Of a stretch of DNA of 18,787 nt, positions 12,310 to 18,340 are shown in pieces. Under the pieces are notes generated by a model. It did not search any database. It saw nothing but the letters and a program-made list of their open reading frames with translations, and was not told the DNA's origin. The translations under genes and the position numbers were made by a program. Source of the stretch: a virus; UHGV virus genome UHGV-0373676. The stretch is one strand, 5' to 3'. Position 1 is the first letter of the stretch, and each line of letters opens with the position of its first letter.

Positions 12310-13539
12310 TCAACCACCAACGCTACCTTTCCCCACCAGCGCTTTAATGGCAGAGGTGTCTTCCAGGATACAGTCAAAACGATGGAAGGCCAGAAAACCG
12401 GTCTGATCATATTCCGCGTAACGCTCAACCAGACGTTTAAGAATCATGTATCGCACACGACGGATAATGAAGCGATCAAAGTCACCACAGAACATGAATT
12501 TTTTACCCGCCCCGATATCATCAATTTCCTGATCAATGACATACGGTACATTCAACACTGAAGCAGGTGCCACACCAACAATATCCGGCAACCATAAAGG
12601 GCGTCCCTGACCGTCTTCCATCTCACTGATCAGTTTCAGCGTATTATCGTTAAATGCCAGGCGGAATTTCGGTCCGCGACGATATGCAGGATCAATGCTG
12701 TGTTTCAGAGCCAGAATTTCCTGCCACTTCACCGCATTTGCCGCGGCAGTCTGTGTTGTGCCGGTCACTGATGCTGCCAGCCCTTTGGGTTGTTTAGGCG
12801 TACCAGCCCCCGTCCCCTGAATCAGATAACGGGCTTCACCACGACCAATACGTTCAGCAATGCGACGGGCAAGATAAGCTTCCATATCGATCGCGCTGTC
12901 CTGCAGCAACTCATTAGACACACGAATGATTTTCGATGTCATTTTGAGCGCCCCAAGGCTTCCCATACCGAAATCGGTGTCTTCTTCACCGGCTTCTTCA
13001 TTTTCGCCCAGCAGAACACCAACTTCGGAAGTACCATCAGCTGTTGCCCACTCCATAGTGCGACCGTCAGAAGTGGTCAGAATCTGCGCCACACTGGCGA
13101 TGCCACCGTAGGATTTCATTTTCTCAACAACTTTCGCCAGGAATGTTTCTGGTACGGTATATCCGCCCTTTTCATCCTGAGCTACACCCTGGGCACGAAG
13201 TTCACGCAACGCCTTTCGTTCTTCTGATGTCAGCTCACTGGCACCGTGACGCATCCACTTATCAAAAACCTGAGCTCGTTTCTCATCCTGTTGTGGATTG
13301 TTTTCCGGATCAAGATTCTGACGCTGCTCTTCCTCATTGCTTTCAATGTACGCCTGATCTTGACGACGCAGTTCTTCTTCGCGTGCAATTCGTTCATCAA
13401 GCGCTTCCAGTTCGGATTTTGCTTTGTTCCACTCAGTGCGCTGCTCTTCCGTCCATGCGTTATCACCAATTTTTTCATTCAGGGCGCGCATGTCAGTTGC
13501 GATAGTATTACGTTTCTGTTTCAGTTCATGCAGTTTCAT
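12310..13539 (-). CDS. Major capsid protein, HK97 family, with N-terminal delta (scaffold) domain
   Basis: 409 aa; N-terminal about 100 residues are coiled-coil-like and rich in E, R and K; follows the protease gene; AAGGAAA Shine-Dalgarno. Confidence 0.9.
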   Translation of the reverse strand: MKLHELKQKRNTIATDMRALNEKIGDNAWTEEQRTEWNKAKSELEALDERIAREEELRRQDQAYIESNEEEQRQNLDPENNPQQDEKRAQVFDKWMRHGASELTSEERKALRELRAQGVAQDEKGGYTVPETFLAKVVEKMKSYGGIASVAQILTTSDGRTMEWATADGTSEVGVLLGENEEAGEEDTDFGMGSLGALKMTSKIIRVSNELLQDSAIDMEAYLARRIAERIGRGEARYLIQGTGAGTPKQPKGLAASVTGTTQTAAANAVKWQEILALKHSIDPAYRRGPKFRLAFNDNTLKLISEMEDGQGRPLWLPDIVGVAPASVLNVPYVIDQEIDDIGAGKKFMFCGDFDRFIIRRVRYMILKRLVERYAEYDQTGFLAFHRFDCILEDTSAIKALVGKGSVGG

Positions 13540-13549
13540 GATGTTTCCT

Positions 13550-14152
13550 TTACGCGTTAAGAAGGGTCAGGACGCGTTCACGCGCCATACGTTGATTAAT
13601 GGCTTTCTGTAGCGCGCCGCTGTTGCGCGCCTCCTGCCATGCTTTCATGGAGCGAACAGCCGAGTCAGCCTCCTGATAGGCAGGATATGTCACAGGACTG
13701 ACATCCAGCAGACGGGAAAAGCGGGTTATCTCGCGAATAACAACCCCGTCCTCATCCTGATACCACTCCTCGCCGTCACGGGCGACACGGAAAGCAAAAG
13801 ATGACTGGTTAATATCTCCACGTTGCATCGGGGCCAGCACCAGATCACGAATGGTCTGTGTCTCCGGAGCCTGGATGTCATAGCGCAATCCGCGCTCATC
13901 AACTGAAAGATTCAGCGTGCCTGCTGCACTACGCCCAAGAATAAAATTAGGATCGTGGTTAAACAGTGCGCGTACATCATCACCAAGCACATCGTCAAAA
14001 GCGCCGGGCCGGATGATTTCACGGAATGAACCAAATATCAGCTCAGAACGACAGTCAAACACCGATCCATAACCGATAATGTGCGCAGGGTTATCGTCAT
14101 GCCGCTCAGCACGCACCTCACCGCTGTAACAACGGATTTCACGGTCATTCAT
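13550..14152 (-). CDS. Prohead protease (HK97 family); start moved to the internal ATG at 14152
   Basis: ORF track begins at 14209, but the ATG at 14152 has a GAGGGAAA Shine-Dalgarno and gives MNDREIRCYSGEV..., typical of this family; conserved ...GYGSVFD... motif. Confidence 0.8.
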   Translation of the reverse strand: MNDREIRCYSGEVRAERHDDNPAHIIGYGSVFDCRSELIFGSFREIIRPGAFDDVLGDDVRALFNHDPNFILGRSAAGTLNLSVDERGLRYDIQAPETQTIRDLVLAPMQRGDINQSSFAFRVARDGEEWYQDEDGVVIREITRFSRLLDVSPVTYPAYQEADSAVRSMKAWQEARNSGALQKAINQRMARERVLTLLNA

Positions 14153-15371
14153 TGGTTTTTCCCTCATCATTTTTTGGGGGCTTAAAATCTCCTGCCGGGT
14201 TAGCAGCATTCACGCTTACCAGCATCTCATCCAGCCCTTCAACCGGATTCATATCCTCGAATGCGCGGGCCTCATTACGGCTCATCCATCCATCGGTAAT
14301 AGCGAAGTGATAGAATTGCGCGCGCTCCTGCGGAGTTCCGCGTAAAAGCCCTGTCAGATTGAACCTGACGTAATACCCGGCGGCTAACTCAGCGCGGGTA
14401 AACAAGCGACGGTTAAGCTCCTGCTCCCAGTTCGTCACCCACGGCATCATCGTGTAACGGACAAACTGAATAGCCTGCGCAGAAATATTGGAGAAGGTGG
14501 CTTTTTCGAGGTCATTAATCATGTGCGCAGGAATATTGAAAATACCGGCAATCATTGAACGGTTCAGTTTCATCATGTCAATGATCTGAGCGTCAACTGG
14601 CGACACAGTCAGTGCCTTGTAATCCAGATCGGCTGGCAGCAGCATGGTTTTGTTTTCCTGGCTGCGTAACGCCTGCGATGCCTTCTGCCACTGTTCTTTA
14701 AGCCAGCCCCAGCTGTCCTTATTGAGTCCGCTTTTAACGGATACTATCCCCGCCGGACGGGCATTACCGCTGAAGAAGCTTTCTGTGTATTTCTGACCGC
14801 TCATCCCCATGCCTATTGTTTCGGCATGTTGCATAATCGGACTCAGCCCCATCTTCTGATTATTACCCAGCGCACGGATGTGGATCATATCGTCGGGGCT
14901 GATCGCAAACGCCCCATATTCGTTGTACAAACCGTAGGTGTATCGGCCACCAGTATTCATCAGCGTCGTTTCCCACGGCATACAGCAATCCAGGGATATG
15001 ACTTCACCGCGACGATTACGTTTCACCCAGGTATACCCATTCCCCCAGCCAAGGATGTGACGTTGCTTCAGTTCGCGCCATTTGTAACTGGTTTGCCAGG
15101 TATTGGGCTCATCATGAACCAGATAAAACGCCGGATGATCGCGTGCGGGCTCAACCTTCCCATTGTGCCTGCGCATAACATGCAACGGCATCTGGGCAAG
15201 GCTGGAAGACAGGACATAGATACAGGAATACACCGCAGCCAGTTTCATCGCAGTTTCAGGACTGACATAAACGTCTGCCCGGAACAGCCCATCAGTATCA
15301 ACGGTATCCCCGGTTATCGGGGTGGAAGGATTCTCCAGTGATTTACTTCTGAACAGAGCATCAAGCAGCAC
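14145..15371 (-). CDS. Portal protein (HK97 family), GTG start
   Basis: 408 aa; N-terminus [21 protein letters not shown] typical of portal proteins; start codon is GTG at 15371-15369 with AAGGGGGA upstream. Confidence 0.9.
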   Translation of the reverse strand: MLLDALFRSKSLENPSTPITGDTVDTDGLFRADVYVSPETAMKLAAVYSCIYVLSSSLAQMPLHVMRRHNGKVEPARDHPAFYLVHDEPNTWQTSYKWRELKQRHILGWGNGYTWVKRNRRGEVISLDCCMPWETTLMNTGGRYTYGLYNEYGAFAISPDDMIHIRALGNNQKMGLSPIMQHAETIGMGMSGQKYTESFFSGNARPAGIVSVKSGLNKDSWGWLKEQWQKASQALRSQENKTMLLPADLDYKALTVSPVDAQIIDMMKLNRSMIAGIFNIPAHMINDLEKATFSNISAQAIQFVRYTMMPWVTNWEQELNRRLFTRAELAAGYYVRFNLTGLLRGTPQERAQFYHFAITDGWMSRNEARAFEDMNPVEGLDEMLVSVNAANPAGDFKPPKNDEGKTNE

Positions 15372-15522
15372 GCGTCCCCCTTCTGGCCATAGCCAGTGCG
15401 CCCACCAGCAGTAAACCGCCGGACAGCATCAGAGCCGGAGCCATACCAAACTGCAGGTAAAACCCGCACGTAAGCAGGCCAAAACCAGCCAGCCCGATAA
15501 CATCAGCAATTAGTGATTTCAT
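15361..15522 (-). CDS. Hypothetical small membrane protein (53 aa, two predicted transmembrane helices) between terminase large subunit and portal
   Basis: Read by hand (below the ORF-track cutoff): ATG at 15522-15520 overlaps the terminase stop (ATGA); its TGA at 15363-15361 overlaps the portal GTG start; [53 protein letters not shown]. Confidence 0.4.
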
Positions 15523-17252
15523 AGAATTAAGAGAGCATCGTCCGGATCAAGAGATGAGAGGAAATCGTCGGGTTCTTTGAGCATTGCCCGACCGATCGCC
15601 ATAATCAGTGCAACCGCACCATCGATTTTGTTTTCCGCCTGCTCCTTGACAGGCTTCACCACATCATCGTTACCCGGAATGGTTTTGCCGACCACGTTGC
15701 CGATACACCAGGTCATGATGGGATTGCCATCATGATGAAAGCGCCCCGATTCAATTGCCGCTTCCAGCTCTTTCATCGGGTCGGACATGTTGGTGTAGTT
15801 CTGAATGATAGTGATGGGGTTCAGGTCTTCATCAGCAAGGTCATGTGACAACCCGGTCGCCCCGAAGGGGTCGATGGGTGACTCACTGACCGGGCTGATT
15901 TTGTTCGCCGCTTTGGCCTCCTCGAGGATGTAGCGATAATCCACCTCCGCACCATCGGTAACGGTCAGAACGCCCATTTCCACCCATTTCTGAAAGCGTT
16001 CGGCTGTCCGTCGATCTTCATTTTTCTCGACGCTGTACACCGTGTCATACGGTACCCAGAAACGCGGGGCCACACTGTAGTAATGCGTTTTACCGTCAAT
16101 CTCGCGGGTATAAAGTCGCGCCATGCTGTTCATATCCAGCTTACGCGCCAGGTCAAAGGCCAGAATGCACGGCTGCCCCTCGAACTGCTCAAGGGTCAGT
16201 GATTTATCCTCGCAGCTCTGCCAGCTCACCAGGTTGAAATACGCCGAACGCGCCGACACCCAGATATTGAGGTGTTTTGTTTTAAAGACGTTTGCCAGAC
16301 GGGCGTTATTTTTCGCACGCTGCTGCTGACTTAACAAAAATTCGCGATAAACCGACACGCCAATATTTGGATTGGCTTTTTCCAGCACCTGCGGGTCGGT
16401 CCAGTCGTCACCTTCATCAACGGTATAGATGATCCCGAACAGTTCATCGTTAGGCACCGAGCCGTTGAGCATCTCGATGACTTCCCGCCGTTTGTCGTAG
16501 CACGGCCCCTCAATGTTGTACCCGGCGGTAGTGATAGCCCACATCAGTGGCTGACGTCGCGCCCCCATCCCGGTAAGCATCGTGGTGTAAAGCGCATCTG
16601 TGGCGTGCTCGTGATATTCATCCACCACGGCACAGTGGGGTGATGAACCATCACCGGGGTTACCGATCAGCGGTTCAAACCGCGCACCATCCTCCGGACG
16701 GTTCATGTTTGAGGCGTTAACCTCAATCCCGAACGCTTCCGTCAGCATGGGTGTGCGTTTACACATCAGTCGCGCCGGGCGAAAGACTTCCCACGCCTGT
16801 TTCTCTGTCGTGGCACCGGAATACACTTCCGCGCCAAACTCGTTATCACAGGCAAAACAATACAGGGCGACACCGGCAGAGATTGCCGATTTGCCGTTCT
16901 TACGGGGGATTTCGGTATATACCTCCCGGAAGCGGCGCAGCCGGGAGCCTTTATTGACCCAGCCAAACGCGCAGCAGATCACAAAGAGCTGCCACGGCTC
17001 CAGCGTGATGGGCATCCGTTTGAATGCCCACTCACCCTTGGTGTGCGGCAACAGCTGAATAAATTTCGCGGCCCGTTCAGCCTGGTCCTTGTCGAAGCGG
17101 TAACGAAACGACTTACTTTTTTCCGCCATCAGGTCATCAAGATGGCGCTGGCAGGCCTGAATCACAAACTGGCAGGCCACAATCTTTCCGCGCACGACAT
17201 CACGGGCATACTGATTGGCTGCATTTACGTTGGGGTAAGATTTCCGGCTCAT
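15519..17252 (-). CDS. Terminase large subunit
   Basis: 577 aa; ATGA overlap with the small-subunit stop; ATPase-like N-terminal region and nuclease-like C-terminal region. Confidence 0.9.
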
Positions 17253-17743
17253 GATTCGATAATTTTCAGAAACGGGTTAGTGGCTTTCTTCTGCCCCGCC
17301 AGGCCAATCAGACGCTGGCGGCTGCTGGGGTCGAGTCCGAGCATTGCCCCCGTGCTGCTCATCTCGGACTCCTGTTCTTTCTTGGCGGTCAGCTCCGGAT
17401 TTTTGACCATACCGCCCATTGCACCGGTGATGGTGTTGCCCTGGCTGGCAATATTTTTCACGGCACGTCGCCAGAACTCATAGGCTACGCACCACCGCTC
17501 AAGCACCGCGAGGTCAGTCACGCACAGCAGGCCCTGACCGCAGAGTTCTTTGGTTGTCAGTTGCCACATGATCGTGGCGAGAGGGAGATTTTCTTCTGCG
17601 AACCACTCCGGTGGCTCAACGCCTTTGATGGGCGTAAAAACAGGTTCATCTTTGTTCAGGGCTCGCTTGCCGGGGTTTCCGGCCAGCGCCTTGCGCGCCG
17701 TTGGCTTGGGGCGACGCCCGGAACGCCCCGCCGTTCCAGCCAT
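17249..17743 (-). CDS. Terminase small subunit (P27-family-like); start moved to the ATG at 17743
   Basis: The ORF-track start at 17752 is a GTG; the ATG at 17743 has an AGGAG 9 nt upstream and gives [18 protein letters not shown], typical of the family. Confidence 0.8.
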
Positions 17744-17793
17744 ATGCGGCACTCCTGGTTAAATTTCATTTTTCGCGGGTATAAAAAAACGAT

Positions 17794-17869: not shown

Positions 17870-18220
17870 TCACTTTAACCGTTCACGGGCCGTCTTCGCC
17901 TTATGACACGGCCAGCACAGACTCTGCAGATTACTGTCTGCATCAGTGCCGCCATGCGCTTTAGGGATGATGTGGTCAACGGTTTTCGCCTCACGCACCA
18001 CACCGGCACGCAGACATAACTGACACAGGCCTTTGTCACGCTTCAGTACACGTTCACGGATAGCATCCCATTTCGAACCGTAGCCGCGCTGATGACGGGA
18101 TTGTCCTGGCTTGTATTGCTTCCAGCCTTCGCTTTTGTGGCTTTCGCAGTAGCCTGACGGGTCTGTGGTGGTATGGCGGCAGCCACGAACACGGCAGGCT
18201 TTTGGGATTCGTGATGGCAT
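17870..18220 (-). CDS. HNH endonuclease (terminase-associated); start moved to the ATG at 18220
   Basis: 116 aa from MPSRIPKACRVRGCRHTT; GGAG 7 nt upstream; motifs CRVRGC, DHIIPKAHGG and CWPCH are typical of phage HNH nucleases. Confidence 0.8.
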   Translation of the reverse strand: MPSRIPKACRVRGCRHTTTDPSGYCESHKSEGWKQYKPGQSRHQRGYGSKWDAIRERVLKRDKGLCQLCLRAGVVREAKTVDHIIPKAHGGTDADSNLQSLCWPCHKAKTARERLK

Positions 18221-18340
18221 ATGTACTCCAATGAAGAAGCCACCGACATAGCCTCCTCCATTCATCGTGAAACTATTTTCATCTACCCAGTAATGAATTC
18301 TTTGTAGAGTTGTGATCAATACAACTCACTAATGGAGAGG

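Follow-up and report, generated by a model that had tools for sequence, protein, structure and literature searches.

The subject of this analysis is a 53-codon open reading frame (ORF) in UHGV virus genome UHGV-0373676, a stretch of 18,787 nucleotides of viral DNA that is referred to below as the window. The ORF lies between the gene for the terminase large subunit (TerL) and the gene for the portal protein. The best explanation is that it is probably a genuine late-operon gene for a 53-residue inner-membrane hairpin that is accessory to the portal-side head module. The small gene is already known: it belongs to a catalogued family, PHROG 7105, to which no function has been assigned, and its occurrence here is ordinary. 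The identity of the protein and its topology, as set out in the following paragraphs, are stated with high confidence.

An earlier sequence-only reading of the window had proposed the 53-codon ORF (Table 1) and left its strand unstated. The ORF is confirmed and runs from ATG to TGA on the minus strand. Frame conservation and purifying selection argue that it is a real, selected coding sequence. For this comparison, 80 IMG/VR loci were collected by a portal query only, hence as a sample unbiased towards the small ORF, and the window was added to them. The ORF is intact and exactly 53 codons long in 81 of these 81 loci, which comprise 32 distinct DNA sequences and 23 distinct proteins, and no frame-breaking indels occur among them. 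According to the Nei-Gojobori method, the ratio of nonsynonymous to synonymous substitution rates (dN/dS) over codons 1-46 is 0.24 (bootstrap 0.15-0.36). The other two sense frames both contain stops and give values of 1.0 (+1) and 2.3 (+2), and the portal gene has a value of 0.05. Variable sites within the small ORF are found at 38 third positions versus 19 second positions. Frame conservation and dN/dS were among the checks that the sequence-only reading had proposed, and both came out on the side of a translated gene. No Rfam family matches the small ORF, nor is there any excess of mRNA structure, the folding energy being like that of shuffled sequences (z -0.66). The identical protein is held by RefSeq as a hypothetical protein (Table 1), and the exact protein sequence is present on at least 1000 public contigs.

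The product is extremely hydrophobic. Its grand average of hydropathy (GRAVY) is 1.13, and the maxima of a Kyte-Doolittle plot with a 19-residue window are 1.76 and 1.91. Both hydrophobic segments quoted in the sequence-only reading are found in the translated ORF, and the two-helix product claimed there is borne out by topology prediction. AlphaFold2, run with a 19-sequence alignment, models a helical hairpin with helices at residues 2-25 and 27-52 (mean predicted local distance difference test score, pLDDT, 88.7). Insertion of this protein into the membrane is predicted to be very likely. Across 45 diverse family members, the mean number of lysine and arginine residues is 1.2 at the N-terminus, 0.1 in the 4-residue turn, and 2.5 in the C-tail. 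With basic residues at both termini and a near-uncharged turn, the positive-inside rule therefore indicates an N-in/C-in orientation, in which a turn of 4-6 residues would face the periplasm and the basic tail the cytoplasm. In the same 45 members, G13, G20, and G26 are nearly invariant, G35 is invariant, and G10 is also family-conserved; the near-invariance of G13, G20, G26, and G35 holds down to about 35% identity. Small residues form heptad stripes on both helices (A6/G13/G20 on the first and A28/G35/A42 on the second), which may constitute the packing face between the two helices. A Foldseek search with the AlphaFold2 model found no match at E <= 0.001 in the PDB and BFVD and is uninformative, because a 53-residue hairpin is too simple a structure.

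Several searches place this protein within a larger group. It matches PHROG 7105 with an E-value of 9.2e-22, residues 1-52 being aligned to profile positions 1-52 of 52, and PHROG 502, named 'membrane protein', weakly (E 1e-4). No Pfam or NCBIfam family was found for it. An exhaustive profile search against 1.84 billion representative proteins retrieved 121 clusters, almost all of proteins of 48-70 residues. The known relatives include YmfR from the e14 element of E. coli K-12, L37 of phage phiP27, and gp3 of phage phiE125. A comparison by hhalign of the 7105-type alignment with the YmfR/L37 alignment gave a probability of 94.6% and an E-value of 6.5e-8 with the conserved glycines aligned, although such scores between hydrophobic proteins are inflated by composition. 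A hidden Markov model (HMM) of the 7105-type proteins selects the ORF between TerL and portal alone from the six-frame ORFs of every locus having one (E <= 4e-5; next best 1.9). The YmfR/L37-type HMM does not strongly pick up most 7105-type proteins, and PHROG hits are reciprocal between 7105-type and L37-type proteins. Taken together, these comparisons argue for a single superfamily of 48-70 residues comprising the 7105-type proteins, YmfR, phiP27 L37, phiE125 gp3, PHROG 502, and PHROG 4810, and indicate that the window protein is related to the YmfR/L37 family at a distance and does not belong to it. YmfR itself scores strongly as a protein of the L37 branch, and its RefSeq product name in K-12 cites IPR020297. 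In e14, ymfR is found between aaaE, a terminase remnant, and beeE, a portal remnant. Proteins of this kind were annotated long ago: phiP27 L37 as a 'putative integral membrane protein', phiE125 gp3 as a 'membrane protein', ymfR in e14, and, in the Streptococcus phage Sfi21, a protein of the DUF1056 family. In the searchable literature, ymfR, DUF1056, and PHROG 502 appear in gene lists only, with no functional work. The Listeria anti-packaging protein TerI was set aside, as its locus is unrelated and descriptions of it do not present it as a membrane protein.

The position of the gene is also conserved, lying between TerL and a portal of the HK97 type in each context examined. Six distant members, down to about 40% identity (P0087, P0057, P0074, P0035, P0140, and P0027), show the order TerL, small ORF, portal; all identifiable neighbours on these contigs are TerL or portal, the shortest contigs leaving some neighbours unidentified. 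Where the upstream gene is on the contig, the two genes overlap by 1-4 nt or abut directly at the 5' junction. The slot is also occupied in phages SfI, phiP27, phiE125, VPBES (gene 39), VW-6S, PY54, Ssp-JY37, EPP-1, F1055, and Evi. In the Yersinia phage PY54 (AJ564013.1), the ORF is unannotated: a 65-residue hydrophobic product with two segments, encoded at 2147-2344 on the minus strand, fills the 190-nt 'gap' between genes 2 (TerL) and 3 (portal) and is recognized by the YmfR/L37 HMM with an E-value of 9e-21.

A wider sample was selected by TerL and consists of 80 species-representative genomes with a TerL identity of 67-99%, from Enterobacterales, Burkholderiales, Pseudomonas, Vibrio, and Aeromonas, with 79 evaluable loci. 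A small ORF is found between TerL and portal in 65 of the 79 (about 82%), one of the 65 being frameshifted. The sequence-only reading had found a membrane protein unexpected at this place, an expectation that has to be abandoned, since this is the majority arrangement. A frameshifted YmfR-type ORF is found in one of two SfV/SfI-type prophage copies of Shigella flexneri SFBU0723 (CP182557.1), its 71-residue product diverging after residue 27; the ORF of the second copy is intact. In the remaining 14 loci no small ORF follows TerL, and in 13 of them the next large ORF abuts or overlaps the TerL stop. A Pfam scan of ten of these next ORFs identified nine PF04860 portals. The tenth, in Lampropedia aestuarii (L165, 4201-6213), is a 670-residue fusion of S78 protease and capsid protein encoded straight after TerL, which corresponds to a variant layout. 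The Burkholderia phage BgVeeders33 also lacks the small ORF.

The link to the portal side of the module comes from inheritance. Over 12 loci, the identity of the small protein to that of the window tracks portal identity (Spearman 0.91, p 4e-5) and does not correlate with TerL identity (-0.16). Two phages illustrate this in opposite directions. SfI has a TerL 97.5% identical to that of the window, a portal only 27% identical, and a small protein of the other subfamily. By contrast, the TerL of Evi is 36% identical and its portal 84% identical, and its small protein is of the same subfamily as that of the window. The mosaic breakpoint between SfI/SfIV-type and SfV modules lies about 20 codons (60-70 nt) before the TerL stop, these last codons spanning about 15522-15590 in the window. 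Downstream of it, the C-terminal tail of TerL carries either the motif DFLSxLDPDxxLLIL or EDTLSDHIESYGIRSL, and which of the two is present follows the portal type and not the body of TerL, even in Evi. The inherited block therefore extends from the C-tail of TerL through the small ORF to the portal gene. The pattern is also consistent with the TerL C-tail being a portal-docking tail.

The junctions of the small ORF with its two neighbours, whose identities as TerL and portal are confirmed by Pfam matches, differ from one another. A gap of roughly 150 nt had been reported between the two genes, and it measures 147 nt from the TerL stop to the portal GTG (15372-15518). At the upstream end, the ATG of the small ORF (15522-15520) overlaps the TGA of TerL (15521-15519) in an ATGA, exactly as had been described. 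At the downstream end, the described overlap of the small-ORF TGA with the portal GTG is inexact: the TGA (15363-15361) lies 6 nt downstream of the GTG (15371-15369), and the two genes overlap by 11 nt with the portal in the +1 frame relative to the small ORF. The claim of coupling at both ends consequently holds for TerL, and for the portal it has to be replaced by this longer overlap. No Shine-Dalgarno (SD) sequence precedes the ATG of the small ORF (…CTCTTAATTCTATGA). The strong portal SD, AAGGGGGA, sits within codons R47-R48-G49 of the small ORF, and this stretch is therefore under dual constraint.

Among the 7105-type members within the TerL-selected genomes, the ATGA overlap with TerL is found in 24 of 28, and an SD-like core is lacking in 20 of the 25 genes whose start overlaps or abuts the TerL stop. 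YmfR-type genes more often start 9-13 nt downstream of the TerL stop and carry a GAGG. An ATGA overlap without SD implies initiation by termination-reinitiation. Ribosomes that finish TerL would probably reinitiate at the ATGA and make the small protein, whose synthesis would be tied to that of TerL and no higher; the same ribosomes would next traverse the portal SD. On the coding strand, the roughly 500 nt upstream hold no promoter-like site, and no terminator was found downstream. The only terminator-like hairpin, TGCGGGTTTTACCTGCA, with a T-rich tail lies inside the small ORF (15452-15468, minus strand) and bears no sign of function; counts of terminator-like sites in the region are at the chance level given by shuffled sequence.

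Two other readings of the junction were discarded. The first is a programmed frameshift joining the hairpin to the +1 portal frame. There is no slippery site, as slippage would require a P-site GCU to pair anew with CUU, the spacing of the SD suits ordinary initiation at the GTG, and in other members of the family a gap of 1-10 nt precedes the portal or the overlap is of another kind. One fused protein in the collection (P0033) resembles a frameshift error. The second is a 51-codon ORF with a GTG start (15314-15469, minus strand) that overlaps the beginning of the portal gene as well as the small ORF. Stops in relatives and a dN/dS >= 1 in its frame show that it is no gene.

What the hairpin does is a separate question. 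The role that we tentatively prefer, by analogy, is that of an accessory inner-membrane factor in the portal or head-assembly step, which might for example anchor the portal, a prohead in formation, or the packaging complex to the membrane. In phage T4, proheads are initiated in association with the membrane on the portal gp20, and gp40 is involved in this process. A broader form of the idea, in which the hairpins of YmfR and PHROG 7105 and 502, perhaps with DUF1056, would represent an ancient accessory of HK97-type head modules that keeps the portal, or the packaging complex of terminase and portal, at the cytoplasmic membrane, is quite unlikely as it stands. If it were true, many temperate phages would, like T4, nucleate proheads or package DNA in association with the membrane, in a manner matched to the portal type.

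A number of points weigh against the favoured explanation, some of them against the membrane hairpin and others against its connection with the head. Helix 1 is only marginally hydrophobic: a crude sum of Hessa-scale values amounts to about +2.7 to +3.2 kcal/mol for helix 1 and near 0 to +2 for helix 2. Part of the C-terminal conservation may be a nucleotide-level constraint, as the R-R-G codons overlap the portal SD, and the effect of composition on the hhalign score has already been mentioned. The 14 of 79 modules without the small ORF make it an accessory, not a core, component, which is not generally required for packaging or portal function. In genomes lacking the small ORF, no transmembrane hairpin is fused to the N-terminus of the portal. 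HK97 itself is not known to need such a membrane protein for assembling proheads, and gene 40 of T4 is not adjacent to its portal gene. The co-variation with the portal fits a functional link, but could equally reflect hitch-hiking between a co-adapted TerL C-tail and portal. Finally, the searchable literature holds no functional work on the small protein, and its translation, insertion, and phenotype are here predicted only.

The strongest competitor is an envelope-directed accessory, acting in superinfection exclusion or in some other late change of the inner membrane, for which adjacency to the portal would be a matter of linkage only. A small, very hydrophobic, predicted inner-membrane protein would suit such a role, as would the dispensability of the gene in 14 of 79 related modules and a dN/dS above that of the portal (0.24 versus 0.05); moreover, the category given to PHROG 502 is 'moron, auxiliary metabolic gene and host takeover'. 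However, the gene lacks its own promoter and terminator and mostly also an SD, and little expression would therefore be expected from a repressed prophage. The slot stays the same in phages of Entero-, Burkholderia-, Pseudomonas-, and Vibrio-type hosts and is occupied in 81 of 81 close relatives, unlike that of sporadic morons. Injection blockers, such as HK97 gp15, are normally tail- or receptor-specific, whereas the small ORF follows the head module across phages with differing tail types. At E <= 1, no family of PADLOC-DB was matched. The evidence thus disfavours a role as moron or in exclusion, and we consider an envelope-directed accessory in general unlikely.

A pinholin- or antiholin-like tuner of lysis timing or membrane potential, with class II topology and a helix 1 resembling a signal-anchor-release domain, is very unlikely. 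The two predicted transmembrane helices, the N-in/C-in orientation, the basic C-tail, the glycine-rich and marginally hydrophobic helix 1, and the small-residue stripe of helix 2 would all be compatible with it, and presumably recall the pinholin S21-68. Nevertheless, the lysis cassette of SfV is located elsewhere and is complete (S, R, Rz, and Rz1), Pfam holins remain unmatched even at E 10 and no NCBIfam family was found, and an endolysin gene never adjoins the small ORF in any context examined. Holins need to be present in many copies, which coupling to the low-abundance TerL would also disfavour. It is therefore unlikely that the protein is primarily a holin.

It is highly improbable that the ORF serves as a translational relay, handing ribosomes from TerL to the portal gene and opening the portal SD while encoding a functionless peptide. 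The ATGA overlap, the lack of its own SD, and the portal SD inside its 3' end are what such a relay would look like, and modules without the ORF couple TerL straight to the portal through TGATG or ATGA. Yet the amino-acid sequence is conserved, as reflected by the dN/dS and by the four glycines, the hairpin is kept in subfamilies and in the DUF1056 analogue with an SD of their own and without overlap with either neighbour, and there is no unusual mRNA structure that would need opening. That the ORF is a chance one, a non-coding spacer, or an untranslated RNA element is scarcely credible despite the missing SD and the missing annotation in the original SfV GenBank record, as this idea is effectively refuted by conservation: the frame is intact in all 81 loci, third positions vary more than second ones, dN/dS is well below 1 in this frame only, the family is deep and its synteny fixed, and neither an Rfam hit nor excess RNA structure was found.

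The window carries an SfV-like prophage, in which the small ORF lies in the head and packaging end of the late operon, and all genes in that part of the window are on the minus strand (Table 1). Its DNA is 96.7% identical to that of Shigella phage SfV across the junction and 99% identical to prophages of many E. coli genomes (1,388 matching records). In the SfV GenBank record (U82619.2), the small ORF is unannotated though intact (2572-2723, equivalent to 15361-15522 in the window). The start of the SfV portal gene (orf3) is annotated 16 codons too far upstream in this record and overlaps the small ORF; the too-early GTG arose by a local substitution, and the window has no such GTG. The layout of an HNH gene followed by the small terminase gene is also found at a locus of a distant member of the small-protein family (L093). 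An HNH gene beside the small terminase gene is typical of cos-type HK97-like packaging modules. Two records with Gram-positive labels were encountered. One is a contig called 'MAG: Bacillota bacterium' (JAEWTL010000102.1), whose TerL is 97% identical at the protein level to that of the window prophage. The other is 'Enterococcus phage Efm 3-10' (OR844959.1, 1764 nt), which carries a TerL sequence 87.7% identical at the DNA level. These labels probably result from mis-binning or contamination.

Table 1. The small ORF, its neighbours, and the elements at its junctions, in window coordinates
Feature	Position	Strand	Remarks
HNH endonuclease	17870-18319	-	Directly upstream of small terminase
P27-family small terminase	17249-17752	-	
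TerL	15519-17252	-	Matches PF03354 and PF20441
ATGA overlap of small-ORF start with TerL stop	15519-15522	-	
Small ORF, 53 codons and stop	15361-15522	-	PHROG 7105; identical to RefSeq WP_000838374.1
Predicted transmembrane helix 1, codons 8-25	15448-15501	-	Glycine-rich; marginally hydrophobic
Predicted transmembrane helix 2, codons 28-46	15385-15441	-	G35 invariant in 45 diverse members
Portal SD	15375-15382	-	AAGGGGGA; strong; 4 nt upstream of portal GTG
Overlap of small ORF and portal, 11 nt	15361-15371	-	…CGT GCT GCT TGA over GTG CTG CTT GA…
HK97-type portal	14145-15371	-	GTG start; PF04860, E 2e-98
S78 prohead protease	13550-14209	-	
Major capsid protein	12310-13539	-	

For the window itself these results are of little consequence, as the ORF already has its correct annotation as a hypothetical protein and its family is catalogued. 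The interest is modest and rests on the breadth and age of this unexplained family. In Proteobacteria, most head modules of the P27/HK97 type have a tiny membrane protein with two helices encoded between TerL and portal, Streptococcus phages have a positional analogue, and E. coli K-12 itself holds a relative, ymfR. Should the small protein prove to connect the portal or packaging with the membrane, head assembly would have to be seen differently in a very large group of phages; should it be an exclusion or membrane-tuning factor, it would be another small phage membrane effector. The genetic handles for such work are the co-inheritance with the portal and the TerL C-tail, the conserved glycines, the reinitiation coupling, and dispensability in about 18% of modules.

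Among known systems, the closest are the other members of PHROG 7105, which include gp50 of Pseudomonas phage VW-6S, FIG00643696 of Escherichia phage Evi, F1055_0003 of a Salmonella phage, and gene 3 of Edwardsiella phage EPP-1. They are alike in size, two-helix pattern, and position between TerL and portal, usually show the ATGA overlap as in the window, and present no substantive difference from the window gene. The group of YmfR (e14), phiP27 L37, SfI_003, and phiE125 gp3 shares the slot and the two hydrophobic helices, with a length of 58-64 residues. However, its members are only about 26-38% identical to the window protein and accompany a different portal clade (27-33% identical). Their turn is of the Y-P-P type, whereas that of the window protein is of the F-G-x-A-P type (Q-F-G-M-A-P). 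An L-C-L-x-W-S-W motif in helix 2 is invariant in 17 aligned YmfR/L37 members, and the window protein has no WSW. Their genes also usually possess their own GAGG SD and start 9-13 nt after the TerL stop, in contrast to the ATGA of the window gene.

More remote systems share position or topology. Orf59c of Streptococcus phage Sfi21, a member of DUF1056 (PF06341, 39.5 bits), has 59 residues, a GRAVY of 1.25, and two hydrophobic segments, and its gene occupies the same slot within a module ordered TerS-TerL-x-portal-protease-capsid. Its sequence has no detectable similarity to the window protein, for which DUF1056 is not matched even at E 10, and with both HMMs orf59c reaches about 0 bits. With its Gram-positive host, DUF1056 is thus a positional and topological analogue, homology being unproven. 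In lambda, gene W is located between the terminase gene A and the portal gene B and encodes gpW, a soluble head-completion protein. Only the slot is shared in this case, as the window protein differs in its extreme hydrophobicity and gives no match to the gpW family. HK97 gp15, a moron product that acts in superinfection exclusion, and T4 Imm are small phage inner-membrane proteins encoded, like the window protein, inside a morphogenesis region. Morons, however, have their own promoter and terminator and occur sporadically, whereas the window ORF has neither, is coupled to TerL, and keeps its position across distant phages. For the role in portal or head assembly that is tentatively preferred here, T4 gp40, for which no relation in sequence or structure is expected, provides the conceptual precedent.

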